DNA of 64,000 nt from Nitrospirota bacterium (GTDB lineage Bacteria > Nitrospirota > UBA9217): NCBI GenBank assembly GCA_963840455.1, contig CAWIYV010000014.1, positions 96,001 to 160,000 on the forward strand, read 5' to 3'. A program made the position numbers and the translations under genes. Positions 6,067 to 39,429 of the stretch are shown here, piece by piece; position 1 is the first letter of the stretch, and each line of letters starts with the position of its first letter. A model generated the notes under the pieces. That model ran no database searches, was not told the origin of the DNA, and saw only the letters and a list, made by a program, of their open reading frames with translations.

Positions 6067-7287
6067 CTATTTTGCGTTCCTCACCGTGACCCTGCCGCCG
6101 TCCCTAATGTTGTCGTCCGGGTTCGTGACCACGACCACGCCTTCGGACAGGCCTTTCACGATCTCGGCGGCGATGCCGTTCCTCCTGCCCACCTCGACGG
6201 GGGTGAGCTTTGCGCGACGGTCAGCGACGATGAAGAGCGCCCAGCCATCGCCTTTTCGGAAGAGGGCGCTTTCAGGCACCTGCAGCACGTCCTTGCTCTC
6301 CCAGAGGATGAAGGTGGTGTCGAGGCGGTAGCCGTCGCCAAGCTGCTTCCAGAGCTCGGGAGGGGACGTAAGGTCCACGATCACGTTCACGCGCTGCTCT
6401 TCCACGCCGAGGCTCGATATCTTCGTGAAGCCCGAGGGCTCCACGACGCGCACTCTTCCCTGGAGCGGCTTGTCGCCGCCCCAGCGTTCGAAGAGCACAG
6501 CGGAGCCCGGATGGAGCTTCACGGCATCGGCGGACAGGACCTCGACCTTCACTTCCAGGCTTCCGGGGTTGCCGATGTCGATGAGCGGCTCCGCGGCGGC
6601 AACCACGCCTTCGCTCTCGCGGTGGAGCTTCAGCACCCTGCCGCTAGCCGGAGCGCACACGACCACGGTCTTGCCCGACGGGCCGGAGCGCTCGGCAGCG
6701 GAATAGCCGAGCACGCTCTCCGCCTGTTCCAGGTCGGCCTTTGCAGCAAGCACGGCGGCGTCCGCCGAGAGCCGCATCGCTTCGGCTTTGCGCGACGCCG
6801 TGACCGCCTGGTCGAGGTCGCTCTGCGCGATGTAGCCCGAGGTGGAGAGCTGCCTCATCCTTGCCTCGTGATCGCGGGCATAGTCCGCGTCGGCAACTGC
6901 CGCTCGCGCCTTTTCCTTTGCCGCTTCAAGGGTCGCCCTGGCGGCCGCGACGGCTGCTTCAGCCCCTGCCTTGCTCCGGGGATCGAGGACCGTGGACCGG
7001 AGCGGTTCGAGCAGGGCAACCTGCGCGCCTTTCTTCACCATGTCGCCCGCCTGCAATTCGATGCGCCTGAGATAGCCTGCTACCGGGGCGGACAGGACAA
7101 AGCGGTCCCTGACCCGTGTTCTGCCTTCCTCCTCCACGGTCACCCTGAGCGGGCCCCGTGAGGCCTTTGCCACGTCAACGGCAACGGGCTTGGGCAGGAA
7201 ACCGTAGGCAAGGGCTGCGACGACGACCGCGCCGACGGAGATGACGAATACTCTTCTGCGTGTTTGTGCCTTCATGAGTATCTCCAT
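6067..7287 (-). CDS. HlyD/membrane fusion (periplasmic adaptor) protein of an ABC exporter
   Basis: N-terminal TM helix, SAPVAG lipoyl-like half, helical hairpin, SSLGVEEQRV. Confidence 0.9.
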   Translation of the reverse strand: MEILMKAQTRRRVFVISVGAVVVAALAYGFLPKPVAVDVAKASRGPLRVTVEEEGRTRVRDRFVLSAPVAGYLRRIELQAGDMVKKGAQVALLEPLRSTVLDPRSKAGAEAAVAAARATLEAAKEKARAAVADADYARDHEARMRQLSTSGYIAQSDLDQAVTASRKAEAMRLSADAAVLAAKADLEQAESVLGYSAAERSGPSGKTVVVCAPASGRVLKLHRESEGVVAAAEPLIDIGNPGSLEVKVEVLSADAVKLHPGSAVLFERWGGDKPLQGRVRVVEPSGFTKISSLGVEEQRVNVIVDLTSPPELWKQLGDGYRLDTTFILWESKDVLQVPESALFRKGDGWALFIVADRRAKLTPVEVGRRNGIAAEIVKGLSEGVVVVTNPDDNIRDGGRVTVRNAK

Positions 7288-23367: not shown

Positions 23368-23594
23368 TGATGGCAGGTCCTGAGGTATGGATCAATGAAT
23401 GGCTGAATGTGTTCTGAACAATAACACAGCCATTTGGAAAAAACAACATAATGAGATCGTGGTTGCACAAAGTATTGCTCTTTCCCTTACGCACGACTTT
23501 ACCGGCAATAATCCTCTGCTCTGTGATGCCGATCTGCATGCTCGGATCAGCAGAAATGCATGTGTGCTATACTAGAAGTACAAGGAGGCGGTAT

Positions 23595-24005
23595 ATGCTC
23601 GAGATCATCCTGGGAATCGGCGTTGCCACATTTATTGTGTATACCATATTCAATGTGAATTATATCCTGAGCATGAGACGGACGAGCGAAAGCATGGCGT
23701 CGTTCTTCAGGAACACCGAGGGGAGCCTGAACGCCGCCTTAGGGGAGCTGAAAGAGACGCTTGAAAGCCTGAAGAAGATCACCAATGACGTGGGCGCTGT
23801 GACCGGGGACGTGAAACAGATCTCCAAATCCGTAGCAAGCGTGGAAAGAAGCATACGGGGCGTTTATGATTATATGAAGGAGGGCCTCGGATCTGCCGCC
23901 GGGGCGAACATAGCCGGATTGAGAGCCGGCATAACAACCGGGGTGGTTACCCTGGTGAAAAAAATGCGTGAAGGAAGGAGTGATGATCATGAAAGAGGAA
24001 GTTGA
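23595..24005 (+). CDS. DUF948/YoxC-like membrane-anchored coiled-coil protein
   Basis: SD AAGGAGG; N-terminal TM followed by coiled coil; adjacent to a YtxH-like gene. Confidence 0.75.
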   Translation: MLEIILGIGVATFIVYTIFNVNYILSMRRTSESMASFFRNTEGSLNAALGELKETLESLKKITNDVGAVTGDVKQISKSVASVERSIRGVYDYMKEGLGSAAGANIAGLRAGITTGVVTLVKKMREGRSDDHERGS

Positions 24006-24273
24006 GGTCACAAACGTACGGTCCATCCTGGTCCCCTTCGTGATAGGAGGCCTTGTCGGGGCGGGAGTAGCGCTCCTGCTGGCCCCGAAGGCGGGAAAGG
24101 AACTGAGGAAGGATATCAAGGATATTGCTTTGGACACGCGCGGGAAGATCGCCACGACCGTCGAAAAGGGCAAGGAGCTCTATGTCGACAGCACCGCGGC
24201 GGTCAAGAACGCATTCGAGGCAGGCAAAATGGCGTATATCCAGGAGATGGAAAAACACCGGAAGACCGCATGA
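23983..24273 (+). CDS. YtxH domain-containing protein
   Basis: FVIGGLVGAGVALLLAPKAGKELRKDI. Confidence 0.9.
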   Translation: MIMKEEVEVTNVRSILVPFVIGGLVGAGVALLLAPKAGKELRKDIKDIALDTRGKIATTVEKGKELYVDSTAAVKNAFEAGKMAYIQEMEKHRKTA

Positions 24274-24459: not shown

Positions 24460-25929
24460 TCAGACCTTCAGCAGTTCCGGATTCGTATGGGGGATGAAGA
24501 CGGCTCCCATGAACTCCTTCATGAACTCGGGGTCGTCATGCATGTGTTTGTACGTGATCTTGTCCACGAGCAGGTCCGCGGTACCGGCGATTCCCGCATC
24601 CCGGAGCAGCATGCGGCAGCCTTCGAGAGATGTGTTGCCCATGGGCTTCACGATCCCGGCCTGCCAGCCCGGCACCATACCGATGCCCGCGGCCTTCTTC
24701 ACGTCGATGCCCGTGCCGAGCGCTCCGGACACGAAGACTCTCTTGATGTCTCTGAACGCGACGCCCACGGAGCGGGTCAGGACGAGCAGCAGTGTGAACA
24801 TAGCGGCCTTGGACCGCATGAAGTTCTGGATCTCGCCCTGAGTGATGAAGAGCGCCTCCGCGCAGTCGCAGTTGACGGAAAAGGCCTTCTCGCCGTCGAT
24901 CTCGATGATGTGTCGTTTGCCGGTGAGCGCGCCGGTCTGGTCGATGATGCCGGCAGTGTACAGTTCGTACAGCAGGCTGACCATGCCGGAGCCGCAGATG
25001 CCTTCGGGCCTTCCCTGGTCGAAGGTCTTGCAGGAGACGCAGTCGCCGCTGATCTCAATGTCGTAAACGATGCCCTTTTTCGCCCGCTTCCCGATGGCTG
25101 AGATTCCCTCTTCAAGCGCCGGCCCTGCGGCACCCGCCCCCACGATCATCCACTCCCGGTTCCCGATCACGACCTCGGCGTTCGTGCCCACGTCCACCAG
25201 GATGGACGGCCTGTCAGAGGTATGCATCCCCGTCGCGATGATGCCGGCGGTGATGTCTCCGCCCACATAGCTGCCGGCGTTCGGGAACACGTACGCCAGG
25301 GCCTCCGGGTTGAGGTCGAGGCCGAGCTCCGCGGCGCTGAAGAATCCCGGCGTCCGGACCACCGGGACCCAGGGGGCTACAGGGATGGTGCTGATATCGA
25401 GCCCCAGCAGGAAGTGGGTCATTACTGTGTTCCCCGCCGCGGCCAGGCCGTGGAGGTCCCGGCCATTGACGCCGGCCTCGCGGCAGAGCGATGCGATAAG
25501 CGTGTTGATGCCGTTCCTGAGGACCCGGTAGATATCCTCGCCGTTGCCGGTCATGGCATGATGCATGCGGGTAAGGATGTCGCTCCCGTACTCGACCTGG
25601 GGGTTTTCGAGAGATCGGGTCACGATGTCCTTCTGCCCGATATTGTCATAGAGCACGGCAACGAGGTTCGTGGTGCCGAGGTCCAGGGCGACGGAGTAGG
25701 AGCGCCGCCGGTCGATGTCGATGAGCCGGTATGTATCGCCTGCCCTGCCGATGATGCATGACAGCTCGCGCTTCCTATTGATGATCGCAGCCGTTGAGCG
25801 GAGGAGCGACAGGGGAATGTGGAGCGGCCCCAGGCCGAGGGTGTCCCGGAGCCGCTGGTCGTGGGCCCGCCGGTCGTCGTCAGAGGGCAACGGGAGCGTT
25901 ATGGTCTTTTGAAAGATGAGCGGTTCCAT
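24460..25929 (-). CDS. ASKHA-domain ATPase (DUF4445/RACo-like reductive activator) lacking the N-terminal 2Fe-2S domain
   Basis: ALDLGTT, YGSDILTR, AAGNTVM, YVGGDI, VDVGTNAE, AAGPALE, GICGSG, GNTSL. Confidence 0.9.
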   Translation of the reverse strand: MEPLIFQKTITLPLPSDDDRRAHDQRLRDTLGLGPLHIPLSLLRSTAAIINRKRELSCIIGRAGDTYRLIDIDRRRSYSVALDLGTTNLVAVLYDNIGQKDIVTRSLENPQVEYGSDILTRMHHAMTGNGEDIYRVLRNGINTLIASLCREAGVNGRDLHGLAAAGNTVMTHFLLGLDISTIPVAPWVPVVRTPGFFSAAELGLDLNPEALAYVFPNAGSYVGGDITAGIIATGMHTSDRPSILVDVGTNAEVVIGNREWMIVGAGAAGPALEEGISAIGKRAKKGIVYDIEISGDCVSCKTFDQGRPEGICGSGMVSLLYELYTAGIIDQTGALTGKRHIIEIDGEKAFSVNCDCAEALFITQGEIQNFMRSKAAMFTLLLVLTRSVGVAFRDIKRVFVSGALGTGIDVKKAAGIGMVPGWQAGIVKPMGNTSLEGCRMLLRDAGIAGTADLLVDKITYKHMHDDPEFMKEFMGAVFIPHTNPELLKV

Positions 25930-26041
25930 GGGGAATGAACTGCAGAGCGTGTGGAGAACAATACCATAGAACATGGGGGAAAGACAAGATAGGAGTCAGG
26001 AGAACACTTACAGCGGATCTCGTCTGAATGCTGGATTCTGG

Positions 26042-27637
26042 CTACTGGCTACTGGCTTCTGAGATAAAGCAGAAGGGGTCCTTGTCCTCGAAGATGTTCA
26101 ACCCACTGCTCAGAGTGCTGGCGAGGCATCCGCCGCAGGCAGGCCGGACCTCGCAGTCGCGGCAGTCCGACGGGCCTAGCCGGTATCGGCGCGCCTCCTC
26201 GCAGTCGTAGATCGTAGCAAGGCTTTGACAGTGGAGATTGCCGATGGGAGAGGGGAGCTTCCGGCAGGCATGGACCTCGCCGTCGGCCAGAAGGGAGACG
26301 AAGTTGAACGCTGCGCCGCATCCGTAGCCCGCGCATCCGCCGAAGAGGTCGACGCCCTTCTCGCGCCGCAGGATGTTGATGAGGTTGTCCTTGATGCCCA
26401 TGACCGGGTTCGTCTCTGCTGCCGCGAGGTAGTCCTCAAGGAACTTCCGGTAGCGCGTCCGGTCAGGGAGCTTGAGGTTCGCGCCTTCACCGAAGAGCGC
26501 GAGGCGGTTGAAGTGGAACACGTCGGCCTTTCCCCGGAGCAGCTCGGCCAGCGGGATGACCTCGTCCATGTTGTCGCGCGTCAGCGTGAGCATCACCATG
26601 GAGTAGATGCCCAGTTCGCGCAGAACGTCCAGGAACGCCATGATGCGGTCGAAATGGCCTGCGCCGCGGATATTGTCGTTATGCTCGCGCAGGCCCTCGA
26701 GGCTCACTTGGAAAAAAACGGGCTGCTGAATCGCCATGATCTCCTCGATGCGGCCGCGGGGAGCGGGATTGCCCAGGATCGCGGTGACGAACCCGCGGTC
26801 CGCGGCTGCGCGGTAGATCTCGTTGAACTGCGGATGGAGCAGAGGATTGCCGCCGGTGAAGGAGACCGCGCCCCGGACCCTCCGGTCCCTGCAAAAGGCG
26901 CGCAGGTCGTCGAGGACACGCACCGCCTGTTCGAGGGTGAGGGGCGAGCGGTCGCTCCGATCGTAGCAGTGCTTGCAGTGCAGGTCGCAGACCTGCGTGA
27001 TGTGCCACTGGAGCGTGAAAGAGTCGGAGGATAGGAACTCCTCGTCGCTAGATCTAACGGCCCTGAAGACCGACGGATCGCGCCGGAGCAGGGAGGGTGG
27101 TGCAAGGAGCAGGCCCTGCCGGACAGCACGATCGATCAACGCGTCCATGGCGCTTACAGTCACCTTGCCCGTGGCAGCCACTGATTCGGTAGAGATGCTT
27201 TCAGCGGCCATCTTGAGCGCAAGGAGATCGTCGTTCGAGGCCGGCTTGATACGGGCCTTCTTTTCCCGCTGGTCGAACCAGAGCAGGATGCGCTCCGGGC
27301 CTTCGACCGGTTCGACCGCCGGCCCCGGGACAGGCTCGAACAGGCCGCACAGTCCGCGCCAATGGACCTCGTGCACCGCCACCGTGGGATTCACGGCCAA
27401 CGCATCGACGGATGAGGGAATGGATGAGGCCCTGCCCCCGACGAGCCAGAGCTCATGCTCGATTCGCAGGAGGTCGTGCAGGTACCCAGGGAGGGCGACG
27501 CCTGCAGCGTGCAGTATGCTGAACAGGGCATCGGGGGCCGGGACCGCATCTGCCGATTTGACGTTCCTGTCCCAGAGGTCCGTGCCAACAACGGACCGGG
27601 AAACCAGATAGAATGCATTTTTCTTGTCGATGGTCAT
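26042..27637 (-). CDS. sbtM: Radical SAM/SPASM peptide maturase of the thio(seleno)oxazole (selenobiotic) family
   Basis: LQWHITQVCDLHCKHCY, FTGGNP, SPASM GGCAGYGCGAAFNF...HACRK...CRDC...CGGC; long N-terminal extension; adjacent Sec-containing precursors. Confidence 0.88.
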   Translation of the reverse strand: MTIDKKNAFYLVSRSVVGTDLWDRNVKSADAVPAPDALFSILHAAGVALPGYLHDLLRIEHELWLVGGRASSIPSSVDALAVNPTVAVHEVHWRGLCGLFEPVPGPAVEPVEGPERILLWFDQREKKARIKPASNDDLLALKMAAESISTESVAATGKVTVSAMDALIDRAVRQGLLLAPPSLLRRDPSVFRAVRSSDEEFLSSDSFTLQWHITQVCDLHCKHCYDRSDRSPLTLEQAVRVLDDLRAFCRDRRVRGAVSFTGGNPLLHPQFNEIYRAAADRGFVTAILGNPAPRGRIEEIMAIQQPVFFQVSLEGLREHNDNIRGAGHFDRIMAFLDVLRELGIYSMVMLTLTRDNMDEVIPLAELLRGKADVFHFNRLALFGEGANLKLPDRTRYRKFLEDYLAAAETNPVMGIKDNLINILRREKGVDLFGGCAGYGCGAAFNFVSLLADGEVHACRKLPSPIGNLHCQSLATIYDCEEARRYRLGPSDCRDCEVRPACGGCLASTLSSGLNIFEDKDPFCFISEASSQ

Positions 27638-27652
27638 GGCAGGATGAGCCCG

Positions 27653-27696
27653 AAAAAATTATATCCCGTGCATGGAGCAAAGTCCATACCCGGGAT
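27653..27696 (-). terminator. Terminator-like hairpin between precursor and maturase
   Basis: Minus strand ATCCCG.GTATGGA-CTTTGC-TCCATGC.CGGGAT followed by ATAATTTTTT. Confidence 0.55.
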
Positions 27697-27760
27697 AAAA
27701 AAGGATGCTGATAGTTGGGGCCATGGCCCCGCGCAGGTGGTCCGGTACTTCGTCTTTTTC

Positions 27761-27776
27761 TCGTGCGACCGCACGA
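27761..27776 (-). promoter_or_regulatory. Bacterial SECIS hairpin
   Basis: UCGUGC-GGUC-GCACGA; the loop starts 21 nt after the last UGA. Confidence 0.75.
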
Positions 27777-28004
27777 TTATTTGGAACCGCTTCAGCTGCT
27801 CTTCGGCGTTTCCTTCTTAGTGCCGCTTCAACTACTTTTTGCCGGCGCCGTCTTCGTCGGTTCCGACTTCAGCGCGCTACCGGTGGGGGCGGACTTGAGC
27901 GTACCCTCCGCTTTCGGGCTTTCCGCAGCAATGAGGCTGGTGCCGGTCAGGAGCCCGGCAATGCCGAGCCCTGCTAAGTACTTTTTGAGATCCTTTGGGT
28001 CCAT
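27777..28004 (-). CDS. sbtA: Selenocysteine-containing RiPP precursor, 75 aa, 2 UGA codons
   Basis: SD AGGAGGT. MDPKDLKKYLAGLGIAGLLTGTSLIAAESPKAEGTLKSAPTGSALKSEPTKTAPAKSS-U-SGTKKETPKSS-U-SGSK-TAA. UGA at 27830-27828 and 27794-27792. Confidence 0.88.
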
Positions 28005-28206
28005 TGGTCATTCACCTCCTTTCCTGGTTCAAGTCTGCATTCTATTCCATTGGTAAATTCGATAGAAAAGGAAAATTACTATCGGCAATACTAACAGTGT
28101 ACCTGTCCGCTGTCAAGGAGATGTGGTGGATGCCGGGATGGCGGAGGCGGTATATGGTATTGATGGGAGCGGCCATTGATGAGGCAATATTGCCGGCTGC
28201 GGTTTG

Positions 28207-28247
28207 AAAAAAGATAGCCCGGACAGGAACTGCGTCCCTGGCTGGGC
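28207..28247 (-). terminator. Intrinsic terminator after the upstream precursor
   Basis: Minus strand GCCCAGCCAGGGAC-GCA-GTTCCTGTCCGGGC then TATCTTTTTT. Confidence 0.6.
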
Positions 28248-28327
28248 GGCATGGTGATATTCTTTTCCGGGCCGTTGTCCGGTCCGTTGCGCATCGTTGT
28301 GCGCCGGTGTAGCCATGTTCCGTGGGA

Positions 28328-28343
28328 TAGTGCGACCGCACTA
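28328..28343 (-). promoter_or_regulatory. Bacterial SECIS hairpin
   Basis: UAGUGC-GGUC-GCACUA; same 21-nt spacing, with a compensatory pair relative to the 27761 copy. Confidence 0.75.
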
Positions 28344-28556
28344 TTACTTGGTGCCGCTTCAGCTGCTCTTGGCAGGGATCTGCGAAGCGTCGCTTTTAGC
28401 GCCACTTCAGCTGCTCTTTGCCGGAGCCTGCTGGGCGTCACCCTTCTTGCCGCCTCAGCCGGTAGAGGCGCAGCCGCCAGCCATCAAGCTGGTGCCCGCC
28501 AGAAGCCCGGCGATGCCGATCCCTGCCAGGAACTTCTTGAGTTCCTGTGCGTCCAT
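28344..28556 (-). CDS. sbtA: Selenocysteine-containing RiPP precursor, 70 aa, 3 UGA codons, possible lipoprotein
   Basis: SD AAGGAGGT. MDAQELKKFLAGIGIAGLLAGTSLMAGGCASTG-U-GGKKGDAQQAPAKSS-U-SGAKSDASQIPAKSS-U-SGTK-TAA. UGA at 28457, 28409 and 28361. Confidence 0.88.
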
Positions 28557-28749
28557 GGTACACCTCCTTTTCCTATAGGGTATGTGCTCCCGAGGATCAC
28601 AATAGGTACCAGCGATCGAAAGTGCATGGCCCAATATAAAAAATAATATCAGTGACACAGGCGTCCTGTCAAGCGCCGACGCCCGATGTTCAGGAGGCCG
28701 CAGTCCTTTCTCTCTACAAAACCAACGGGCAAAGAGTTATAATAACTTC

Positions 28750-29385
28750 ATGAAAAAGTTTATTATCACGTTGATCGCAATGCTGGTCCTGGGAGGGGTG
28801 AATATGGCGCAGGCGGGCGAAGCCGGGAAGGGGTCAGCCGTCACTCCGAAGAATCTGGAGAAGGCAACTTTCGCGGGCGGCTGCTTCTGGTGCATGGAGC
28901 CACCCTTCGAGAAGCTCAAAGGGGTTGATGCCGTCATATCGGGGTACACCGGCGGCAGGACCGAGAACCCGACGTATGAAGAAGTCTCTTCAGGCAGGAC
29001 CGGGCATGCCGAGGCTGTGGAAGTGCATTATGACCCCACTCAGATAACCTACGCCGAACTCCTGGACGTGTTCTGGCACAATATCGACCCGACGACGCGC
29101 GACCGGCAGTTCGTGGACACGGGAAGCCAATACCGGACGGTTATCTTCTATCACAACGAAGAGCAGAAGCGGCTGGCCGAGGAATCGAAGAAGAAATATG
29201 ATGCATCCGGGCGGTTCGGAAAGCCCATTGTGACCGAGATCGTGCCGGTGGGGAAGTTCTACCCGGCAGAGGAATATCACCAGGACTACTACAAAAAGAG
29301 TGCGGTGCGCTACAAGTTCTACCGCTTCAATTCGGGACGTGACCAGTATCTGGAGAAGATCTGGGGCAAGGAGAAGGACCAATAG
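28750..29385 (+). CDS. msrA: Peptide-methionine (S)-S-oxide reductase with signal peptide
   Basis: FAGGCFWC, SGYTGG, GHAEAV, AEEYHQDYY. Confidence 0.96.
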   Translation: MKKFIITLIAMLVLGGVNMAQAGEAGKGSAVTPKNLEKATFAGGCFWCMEPPFEKLKGVDAVISGYTGGRTENPTYEEVSSGRTGHAEAVEVHYDPTQITYAELLDVFWHNIDPTTRDRQFVDTGSQYRTVIFYHNEEQKRLAEESKKKYDASGRFGKPIVTEIVPVGKFYPAEEYHQDYYKKSAVRYKFYRFNSGRDQYLEKIWGKEKDQ

Positions 29386-38856: not shown

Positions 38857-39429
38857 ATGAAGATCAGGCCGTTGAACGATTGGGCAGTGATCGTCCCGTC
38901 CGAAGCCTTGACGCGCACCGCCGGGGGGATCTTCATCCCCGATGCGGCAAAGGAGAAGCCGGCCGAGGGGACCGTCGAGGCCATCGGGCCCGGCGCTTAC
39001 GAGGAAGAGAAAAGGCAGGAAAAAAAGAAGGAGAAAAAGGAGCGGAAGTTCGTCCCCACGTCCGTGAAGCCCGGCGAGCGGGTCATGTATGACCGGTATG
39101 CGGGACAGAAGATCGACATACACGGAGAGGAACGGGTGCTGGTGCGGGAAAAGAACATCCTGGGTATCCTGCCGCCTGCGCCTGCGCGGCCGAAAGAGGA
39201 CCTGCCGCCCCTCATGCTGCCTGTGGCAACATCGGCCTCTTCGTCGACGGCGGTCGTGAAGCGGAAACACTCGCCGGTCATGGTGAAAAAGGAAGCACCG
39301 AAGCCCGCAGTGAAGAAGGCGGCGAAGATGAAGCCTGCGAAGAAAGCCGCTGTCAAGAAGACGGCCGCGAAGCCGAAGAGAACAGCGGCGAAAAAAGCCG
39401 CGTCAAAAAAGGGAAAGAAGAAACGGTAA
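38857..39429 (+). CDS. groES: GroES-family co-chaperonin with a Lys/Ala-rich histone-like C-terminal tail
   Basis: MKIRPLND...TAGGIFIPDAAKEKP...VEAIGPG...VKPGERV...ILGI, then a Pro-rich linker and KPAVKKAAKMKPAKKAAVKK... Confidence 0.85.
   Translation: MKIRPLNDWAVIVPSEALTRTAGGIFIPDAAKEKPAEGTVEAIGPGAYEEEKRQEKKKEKKERKFVPTSVKPGERVMYDRYAGQKIDIHGEERVLVREKNILGILPPAPARPKEDLPPLMLPVATSASSSTAVVKRKHSPVMVKKEAPKPAVKKAAKMKPAKKAAVKKTAAKPKRTAAKKAASKKGKKKR

Follow-up and report, generated by a model that had tools for sequence, protein, structure and literature searches.

The SbtA/SbtM system is a known family of RiPPs (peptides made by the ribosome and modified after translation), in which a precursor with a conserved leader carries selenocysteine (Sec, U) or Cys within a Gly/Ser-rich motif, usually more than one Sec per precursor, and is encoded next to a radical SAM/SPASM maturase. 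For the chemistry of SbtM we draw on published work: PMC9204691, a perspective from the laboratory that made the discovery, describes the enzyme as taking 4 Da off Gly-Cys or Gly-Sec to form a thio(seleno)oxazole and as accepting Cys substrates, and PMC11002830 also reports this chemistry. The first of these papers gives the motif GGUG, mentions "at least two SeCys" in newer SbtA annotations and describes the SbtA/SbtM pair as seemingly restricted to Geobacter and Desulfobacteria; both papers place a SECIS element (selenocysteine insertion sequence) directly after each SbtA UGA. A 2026 review lists TIGR04081 in a table as "selenobacteriocin", with the motif SGUG and 2 Sec. Here we describe a locus of this family in a stretch of 64,000 nucleotides (hereafter the window; contig CAWIYV010000014.1 of assembly GCA_963840455.1) from a Nitrospirota-like genome. 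Taken as a whole, the locus is probably best explained as a two-precursor SbtA/SbtM thio(seleno)oxazole RiPP system. It shares the leader, the Sec/Cys motif, the adjacent maturase and the multiple Sec codons of the described systems but differs from them in four respects: its nearest relatives are Nitrospirota metagenome-assembled genomes (MAGs), four of its five sites read S-S-U-S-G, its two precursor genes are differentiated into a putative lipobox type and a presumably soluble type, and a SECIS is found only at the last UGA of each gene. The three genes and the two hairpins are as follows.

28344..28556, minus strand: sbtA1 (type 1), 70-aa precursor; ATG at 28556, TAA at 28346-28344; putative Sec codons U34 (28457-28455), U50 (28409-28407) and U66 (28361-28359)

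27777..28004, minus strand: sbtA2 (type 2), 75-aa precursor; ATG at 28004, TAA at 27779-27777; putative Sec codons U59 (27830-27828) and U71 (27794-27792), both in the context KSS-U-SG

26042..27637, minus strand: sbtM (531 aa), radical SAM/SPASM maturase for thio(seleno)oxazoles; contains CDLHCKHC and the SPASM cysteines

28327..28344, minus strand: terminal SECIS hairpin of sbtA1, AUAGUGC-GGUC-GCACUAU; covariance model R1, 34.7 bits, E = 4e-7

27761..27776, minus strand: terminal SECIS hairpin of sbtA2, UCGUGC-GGUC-GCACGA; covariance model R1, 29.4 bits, E = 8e-6

An earlier note on this DNA had described a minus-strand gene pair with strong Shine-Dalgarno sequences and a common leader, whose frames run through in-frame TGA codons to a TAA, and all of this is seen in the sequence. 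The leader MDxxxLKKxLAGxGIAGLLxGTSL is common to sbtA1 and sbtA2, both Shine-Dalgarno sequences are of the GGAGG type, and the genes end in TAA after three and two UGAs, respectively, with sbtA2 lying 140 nt and sbtA1 707 nt upstream of sbtM on the same strand. Read through, sbtA1 translates as MDAQELKKFLAGIGIAGLLAGTSLMAGGCASTG-U-GGKKGDAQQAPAKSS-U-SGAKSDASQIPAKSS-U-SGTK and sbtA2 as MDPKDLKKYLAGLGIAGLLTGTSLIAAESPKAEGTLKSAPTGSALKSEPTKTAPAKSS-U-SGTKKETPKSS-U-SGSK. The UGAs of sbtA1 fall at codons 34, 50 and 66 (contexts STG-U-GG, KSS-U-SG and KSS-U-SG), so that the four KSS-TGA-SG motifs, the single STG-TGA-GG and the 16-codon spacing claimed for the 70-aa copy are exact, and the small-residue motif S-[SG]-U-[SG]-G is present at 5/5 UGA sites of the two genes. 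The claim that open reading frame (ORF) lists truncate one gene and miss the other was equally accurate: under translation table 11, sbtA1 is represented solely by an ORF of 67 aa that is extended to a GTG and broken off at U34, while the ORF for sbtA2 breaks off at U59 and, at 58 aa, falls under the default 60-aa listing threshold. Public protein collections returned eight matches, truncated forms only, and the four that were inspected all stop just before the first UGA.

The assignment to the SbtA/SbtM family proposed in that note holds for all three genes, each of which passes its equivalog cut-off. Against the NCBIfam equivalog TIGR04081 (SbtA), a model that spans only the 27-residue leader, sbtA1 scores 41.8 bits and sbtA2 47.5 bits (cut-off 30.5). 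Similarly, sbtM scores 717.5 bits against the SbtM equivalog TIGR04082 (cut-off 350), covering model positions 7-516 of 516, and matches the Pfam families Radical_SAM and SPASM. An alignment of 24 of the 27 SbtM references first listed (two with internal stops and one more were left out) revealed that the CxxxCxxC radical SAM motif (C217, C221, C224) and eight C-terminal cysteines (C435, C440, C458, C492, C495, C501, C504 and C523) are invariant in 24/24 sequences. The radical SAM thio(seleno)oxazole chemistry that the note had named likewise matches what PMC9204691 and PMC11002830 report for the SbtM family. The family is already known and catalogued, and sbtA1 and sbtA2, as first described, are a further member of it.

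To place the locus among its relatives, one genome per species was scanned (loci are designated by L-numbers, such as L076), which yielded 72 sbtM loci. The closest belong to Nitrospirota MAGs (87-61% identity); the others are mostly from Desulfobacterota, with one Leptospiraceae MAG. A hidden Markov model built from both window leaders, searched with TGA read through, recovered 62 read-through precursors in 56 of these loci. Together with the two of the window, motif-context UGAs number 0 in 3 precursors, 1 in 3, 2 in 34, 3 in 23 and 5 in 1, counts in which a few rows hold spurious read-through beyond the true end. Since 58/64 precursors contain at least two such UGAs, multiple Sec codons are the family norm; the multivalency stressed in the earlier note thus does not set this locus apart and has been published before. 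Over 153 U sites the consensus is S-[G>S>A]-U-[G/S]-G-x-K. Sec and Cys interchange at these positions: L027, L085 and L062 have all-Cys precursors (3, 7 and 11 sites), L086, L083, L093 and L076 have mixed Sec/Cys precursors, and L076 carries a TGT Cys codon (C51) at a homologous UGA site within the Nitrospirota clade itself. Whether homologues have Cys at the UGA columns had been posed as a check, and they do. The two-gene arrangement, with type 1 reading ...MAGGC(A/S)... and type 2 ...IAAE..., recurs in the Nitrospirota loci, which bears out the view of sbtA1 and sbtA2 as paralogues, both types being conserved in the clade.

The terminal hairpins were scored with R1, a family SECIS covariance model derived from 44 hairpin-bearing sites and run unfiltered on the whole window. 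In sbtA1 the stem begins with the final A of the stop codon, 17 nt past the U of UGA-66, and the remainder falls within the 3' UTR (untranslated region). The sbtA2 hairpin lies in the 3' UTR directly after the stop, and a terminator scan also sees it on the plus strand. Terminal UGAs across the family are followed by a hairpin of 6-9 bp that starts 14-21 nt downstream and has a G-U-containing loop. In the 44-site alignment the stem displays compensatory changes at 5/6 pairs, and its 100% pairing is partly by construction, as the rows were chosen for having a hairpin. An Rfam scan of 27600-28700 (E up to 10) produced only chance miRNA/sRNA matches far below gathering scores and no bacterial SECIS match. 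Elsewhere in the window, the linear UGA-RGCGG flank of the model aligns without a hairpin at 39257-39297 (plus strand, 14.0 bits) and 6898-6928 (minus strand, 11.4 bits), probably by chance.

Comparison across clades shows that the architecture of these genes is a departure from the family pattern. Hairpins were counted if they had six or more base pairs and a loop of 3-5 nt starting at +18 to +31. Outside Nitrospirota, such a hairpin follows 67/79 internal and 22/23 terminal U sites; within the Nitrospirota clade it follows 13/13 terminal sites and 1/19 internal sites, that one being a different hairpin. Over all clades, 35/36 terminal U sites have a hairpin in SECIS position. Core Cys sites have one in 2/34 cases in other clades and 0/1 in the Nitrospirota clade, so the SECIS hairpin tracks Sec rather than Cys sites. 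In terms of distance, a canonical hairpin lies at +10 to +22 for 88/102 sites of the other clades; the 19 Nitrospirota internal sites, drawn from nine genomes, have no canonical hairpin nearer than the terminal one, at 47-113 nt. Almost all internal UGAs of Desulfobacterota come with a separate 6-bp hairpin at +17, which encodes a recurrent "SAVST/SAGGA" peptide. The recurring core K-[GD]-S-A-V-[SG]-[TA] of Desulfobacterota sbtA genes (e.g., L061, L050 and L092) is the translation of this in-frame SECIS hairpin; part of the core is therefore set by RNA structure, not by peptide function. In L062, L083, L029, L028 and L068, pairs of UGAs, or a UGA and a Cys codon, lie 9-24 nt apart with one hairpin after them. 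The first UGA is then separated from the stem by 31-41 nt, which represents an intermediate state of SECIS sharing. A 3-bp remnant stem seen by eye at the canonical position after type-1 UGAs was discarded as too weak and without G-U loops.

Coding signatures extend past the first UGA. Against six orthologues, substitutions at codon positions 1/2/3 number 19/8/49 before the first UGA and 29/23/65 after it in type 1, and 50/27/136 before and 16/5/22 after it in type 2, so that the third-position bias persists beyond the first UGA (65/117 in type 1, 22/43 in type 2). Chance does not account for the gene pair, given this bias, the leader scores against TIGR04081 and the R1 matches of both terminal UGAs. 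Metatranscriptome contigs in 4/4 runs from three studies cover each sbtA gene across all UGAs, which are unchanged; neither strand nor ends nor level can be read from such contigs, and DNA may be present in RNA libraries. They leave the intergenic stretches 28036-28251 and 27640-27740 uncovered, which is not evidence for transcript ends.

The genome, 14 contigs with a total of 4.03 Mb and an estimated completeness of 100%, encodes the Sec machinery that the earlier note had asked to be looked for. Of the findings that the note would have taken as refuting, a genome lacking this machinery and homologues lacking Cys/UGA at the columns in question, neither is borne out. The genes selA (606.9 bits) and selB (383.5 bits) lie side by side, selD (359.8 bits) has its own in-frame TGA followed by a standard SECIS (stem from +16, loop at +23), and a canonical tRNA-Sec (selC) with discriminator G is present. 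A second Sec-like tRNA, of 95 nt, is encoded in the same genome (C9:389439-389529; L015 1500-1594). Its anticodon is UCA, its acceptor stem has 8 bp and its discriminator is U, the end reading ...AGUCAGUC-U-CC. It fits the definition of tRNA-ReC in PMC13582414 (a length of 80 nt or more, U as discriminator and either UCA or GCA as anticodon), a paper that cites evidence for the insertion of Cys by such tRNAs at UGA codons in concert with SelB and a SECIS. This tRNA gene has a LysR-type gene upstream and, immediately downstream, two genes of the DsrE family. Of the relatives examined, 4/5 from Nitrospirota have a similar tRNA gene, in one case with the anticodon GCA, against 0/5 Desulfobacterota sbtAM genomes, a contrast between two clades only that is confounded by phylogeny. 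In one of those five Desulfobacterota genomes the canonical tRNA-Sec was not found.

The precursor N-termini suggest export, as the earlier note had supposed in speaking of secreted peptides. In each of the 61 distinct precursors the first 12 residues include 2-4 Lys/Arg and an uncharged segment of 14-34 residues comes next, and the conserved "leader" looks as if it doubles as a signal peptide while probably also serving recognition by SbtM. The signal-peptide-like leader of sbtA1 ends in the lipobox-like MAGG-C29; that of sbtA2 has no Cys (…SLIAAE…). A strict lipobox ([LVI][ASTVI][GAS]C at the end of the signal peptide) is present in six homologues (e.g., M-V-S-G-C), and 14 more fit a looser pattern, as in PROSITE; these 14 include all Nitrospirota type-1 genes (M-A-G-G-C), and a few of them are core sites. 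Many other precursor N-termini have A-H-A or A-A-E as their last residues. Across the 72 loci, neither a transporter nor a protease is conserved next to sbtM.

Upstream of each of the three genes lies a sigma-70-like promoter, from a scan that found four sites against 0.9 expected:

28643..28672, minus strand: sigma-70-like promoter upstream of sbtA1, TTGACA-18-TATTAT, 11/12

28088..28116, minus strand: sigma-70-like promoter upstream of sbtA2, TTGACA-17-TAGTAT, 10/12

27658..27686, minus strand: sigma-70-like promoter upstream of sbtM, TGGACT-17-TATAAT, 10/12

Under the proposed mechanism, each sbtA gene would be transcribed from its own promoter as a short mRNA, and its UGAs would be recoded by SelB with Sec-tRNA(Sec), or possibly with Cys-tRNA(ReC). 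In the cytoplasm, SbtM would then act on the S-[SG]-U-[SG]-G motifs and make a 5-seleno(thio)oxazole of each X-Sec/Cys unit. With the N-terminus acting as a signal peptide, we infer that sbtA1 would give rise to a lipid-anchored 42-residue peptide with three heterocycles and sbtA2 to a soluble exported peptide with two.

Several observations weigh against this account. Three of the five UGAs (U34, U50 and U59) are without a canonical SECIS; the nearest canonical hairpin lies 54-113 nt from them, and R1 aligns U59 (17.5 bits) and U34 (15.9 bits) only with the hairpin deleted and does not list U50. According to the review PMC11431864, a SECIS spacing of 11 nt is required in E. coli, and by that rule U34, U50 and U59 should therefore terminate translation; a stop at U34 would leave a signal peptide and five residues only. 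The characterized SbtM substrate is Gly-Cys/Sec, but four of the five sites here are Ser-Sec. The tRNA-ReC-like gene implies that the UGA residues could be Cys, and the A-G-G-C of sbtA1 fits the loose lipobox pattern only, not the strict one. Were the first of these points decisive, translation would end at the first UGA and the conserved downstream sequence would be a non-coding RNA structure, an interpretation in line with the missing hairpins after U34 and U59 and with gene callers that stop the ORFs there. Yet the frame stays open as far as the UGA that has a SECIS, S-S-U-S-G recurs in that frame, the third-position bias continues, Cys codons occupy homologous sites, and the product ending at U34 would be a mere signal peptide with its five residues, all of which makes early termination very improbable. 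The open frame, the in-frame motif, the third-position bias, the TGT codon of L076 and the RNA contigs instead suggest that the internal UGAs are translated. As what, is a separate matter: the tRNA-ReC-like tRNA might read them as Cys, wholly or under selenium limitation, to give a thiooxazole peptide and not a selenium compound. The UCA anticodon and U discriminator of this tRNA, its distribution between the two clades and the acceptance of Cys substrates by SbtM (PMC9204691) speak for such a reading. However, canonical tRNA-Sec, selA and selD are all in the genome, UGA and not UGC/UGU stands at 32/32 distinct motif-context Sec sites of the clade (besides these, one L076 site is Cys and the last site of three type-1 genes is Glu), and the clade contrast of this candidate tRNA-ReC is confounded as noted above. 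We consider this reading rather unlikely; the products may be seleno- or thio-oxazoles depending on selenium supply. The earlier supposition that all core sites are Sec is uncertain, given the lack of a canonical SECIS at U34, U50 and U59 and the tRNA-ReC-like gene.

How the internal UGAs could be decoded was approached through complementarity between two kinds of 9-nt segments. X' lies at +15 after internal UGAs of type 1 and at +17 in type 2, and X(last) comprises the 9 nt after the last UGA:

28434..28442, minus strand: X' after U34, GGUGACGCC, +15..+23; 7/9 pairs with X(last), 18/1000 shuffles as good

28386..28394, minus strand: X' after U50, AGCGACGCU; 8/9 pairs with its own upstream segment (local hairpin), 6/9 with X(last)

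28350..28358, minus strand: X(last) of sbtA1, AGCGGCACC, directly after the last UGA

27805..27813, minus strand: X' of sbtA2 after U59, GGAAACGCC, +17..+25; RNAalifold helix columns 28-36/50-58; 7/9 pairs

27783..27791, minus strand: X(last) of sbtA2, AGCGGUUCC, directly after the last UGA

The leading explanation, which we nevertheless hold at somewhat less than an even chance, is that the single terminal SECIS serves every UGA of its gene through an X'/X(last) helix. With the ribosome on an internal UGA, X', 15-17 nt downstream, would pair with X(last), looping out 15-85 nt and bringing the SelB-binding hairpin, 5 nt past the helix, to approximately the canonical SECIS distance. For the window, we infer that three internal UGAs may be decoded by terminal SECIS elements through such long-range helices. 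Consistent with this, 19/19 internal sites in nine genomes are without a canonical hairpin of their own, and X' and X(last) form at least 7/9 pairs at 17/19 sites, with a mean of 7.32/9 versus 5.06 for shuffled sequences, 5.74 for the X(last) of the other type and 5.68 for the own upstream segment; at 15/19 sites no more than 50/1000 shuffles match the observed pairing. The two types differ in a compensatory manner (GGUG-A-CGC/GCG-G-CACC versus GGAA-A-CGC/GCG-G-UUCC), one of the differences being a synonymous Gly codon (GGC versus GGU), and within type 2 an A-U pair becomes G-C in L124, a compensatory change, and G.U in L122. RNAalifold predicts the helix independently from seven type-2 genes, although with no internal covariation. 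When the mRNA was folded from +13 of an internal UGA, mimicking a ribosome on that codon, sbtA1 from U34 formed one long hairpin (minimum free energy -52.9 kcal/mol, z = -3.65, 0/200 shuffles), imperfect and ending 5 nt before the SECIS, of which X'/X(last) is the predicted closing helix; the z value was -1.76 for sbtA2 from U59 and -1.38 for sbtA1 from U50. Counted in structure-graph steps, +13 is 7.6-11.9 away from the base of the SECIS at 17/19 sites, over linear distances of 34-100 nt, but shuffle means are 10-20 and 3-36/60 shuffles per site are as short, which leaves each site alone weak. A metagenome scan added 12 loci, nine of them from the clade and one of these nine identical to the window in amino acids; in the other eight, 14/16 new internal sites have at least 7/9 pairs, although L120 and L123 each show one uncompensated change and U50 of L124 has no helix. 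The strongest single observation for a shared SECIS comes from the type-1 genes of L022, L122 and L125, in which the last UGA has become GAA (Glu; contexts KSSESG, KSSEGG and KGSESG), yet the AUAGUGC-GGUC-GCACUAU hairpin is kept perfect in its usual place, 17 nt downstream. The two UGAs that remain in these genes lie 65 and 98 nt upstream of the hairpin and have no hairpins of their own.

The shared-SECIS explanation is weakest at U50 of the window, where the helix has 6/9 pairs (153/1000 shuffles as good), the fold z is that same -1.38 and the graph distance is 15.8 against a null of 14.8. Moreover, type-1 X' segments also pair with their own upstream segment, and two compensatory changes favor this local hairpin; the sites are orthologues and paralogues and not independent; part of the X'/X(last) complementarity follows from Gly (GGC GGN) and Ala/Pro codons; and no experiment is known to show a bacterial SECIS acting beyond 40 nt. 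A cascade in which each X'(n) pairs with X(n+1) was dropped in favor of X'/X(last), the compensatory changes of the window favoring the local hairpin. Alternatively, the internal UGAs might be served by a non-canonical local element, namely a hairpin of 21 nt that contains a G.A mismatch and begins 1 nt behind type-1 UGAs, or be read inefficiently without a SECIS, helped by high local SelB. Pairing in this hairpin reaches 87% of cells and includes two compensatory pairs, compared with 17-47% when the partner is slid, and PMC11431864 reports that the absence of a SECIS reduces, and does not abolish, Sec insertion in engineered settings. On the other hand, given the established ribosome footprint, the hairpin would be inside the ribosome when the UGA is in the A site. 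Its loops (AAA, CAAAA and others) are without the G-U of all family SECIS loops, it also follows the Cys codon C51 of L076, type-2 internal UGAs are without it (own-X pairing 5.00/9), and it leaves the retention of the terminal hairpin in the GAA variants unexplained. Local or SECIS-less decoding therefore seems unlikely to us. Returning to the shared SECIS, we extend it to the Nitrospirota clade more tentatively still: one SelB-binding hairpin, formed by the stop codon and the 3' UTR, may recode 2-3 UGAs up to ~113 nt upstream, with the helix reforming as the ribosome advances and presenting the SECIS to each UGA in turn.

Partial precedents exist for such sharing. In the UXXU [NiFeSe] hydrogenases described in PMC13582414, as here, two UGAs are proposed to share one downstream SECIS and tRNA-ReC co-occurs; their UGAs, however, are 9 nt apart, within normal SECIS reach, whereas those of the clade are separated from each other by 30-96 nt and from the hairpin by 47-113 nt. 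Eukaryotic SELENOP and multi-Sec genes of archaea (PMC5727441, PMC5133445, PMC13188914) resemble our genes in that one distal element, partly in the 3' UTR, serves several UGAs, but they belong to other domains of life with other SECIS structures and factors (SBP2/EFSec). In bacteria it is SelB itself that binds the SECIS, and a short spacing is presumably required.

For the products, the closest analogues are bufferins and captophorins (PMC11626156; bioRxiv 10.1101/2025.11.18.689057), copper-binding RiPPs made by MNIO, which also carry a 5-thiooxazole-type heterocycle on Cys. Bufferins are described as thiooxazole RiPPs with Sec-pathway signal peptides that bind copper in the periplasm (PMC11626156), and they share with SbtA several modified sites per peptide and no dedicated exporter. 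Their enzyme, MNIO, is an O2-dependent multi-iron oxidase unrelated to the anaerobic radical SAM enzyme encoded here; they contain no selenium and are folded small proteins, whereas SbtA cores are Lys/Ser/Gly/Ala-rich and of low complexity. The DybA-type lipidated RiPP (PMC13056109) likewise has a lipoprotein signal peptide at its N-terminus and a conserved Cys, and is modified in the cytoplasm and then lipidated; its chemistry and enzyme differ, and the lipobox of sbtA1 is a match at the level of a pattern. Judging purely by analogy with bufferins, the peptides may bind soft metals or buffer redox conditions in the envelope.

Across the 72 sbtM loci, only sbtA and sbtM recur as conserved neighbors; synteny of the RACo-like ATPase, MsrA, YtxH and other genes is limited to 1-5 Nitrospirota loci. 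Most large neighbor clusters proved to be shadow ORFs of sbtM; no functional inference was drawn. A RACo-like ASKHA ATPase (24460-25974, minus strand) begins 67 nt after sbtM on the same strand, matches the Pfam RACo middle and C-terminal domains, scores 343 bits against the AcsV model (below its cut-off of 800) and is syntenic in five Nitrospirota loci only; that it supplies low-potential electrons to the radical SAM enzyme is a speculation. Divergent from sbtA1 lies msrA (28750-29385, plus strand), whose product has an N-terminal hydrophobic signal-peptide-like segment; the gene is syntenic in five Nitrospirota loci and hints at a context of envelope oxidative stress. Two genes for small membrane/stress proteins, YtxH-like (23968-24273, plus strand) and DUF948-like (23451-24005, plus strand), adjoin the cluster, each syntenic in three Nitrospirota loci.

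The locus is a clade-specific variant of the SbtA/SbtM system whose recoding architecture departs from the bacterial rule. It serves as a practical reminder that gene callers cut sbtA genes at the first UGA. Nine genomes and eight metagenome contigs of the clade contain conserved in-frame UGAs without a SECIS of their own, and sister clades have a textbook hairpin after almost every UGA, which makes the family a clean comparative system for studying SECIS reach and a relay based on mRNA refolding. This bears on selenoprotein gene prediction, as tools require a local SECIS, and on the engineering of multi-Sec peptides. If true, the shared SECIS would break the rule that places a bacterial SECIS directly behind its UGA, and would give bacteria a natural analogue of SELENOP, in which one SECIS serves many UGAs. 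The interpretation of the N-termini as signal peptide and lipobox, together with the co-occurrence of tRNA-ReC, narrows the likely products of these bacteria to envelope-located poly-seleno- or thio-oxazole peptides.

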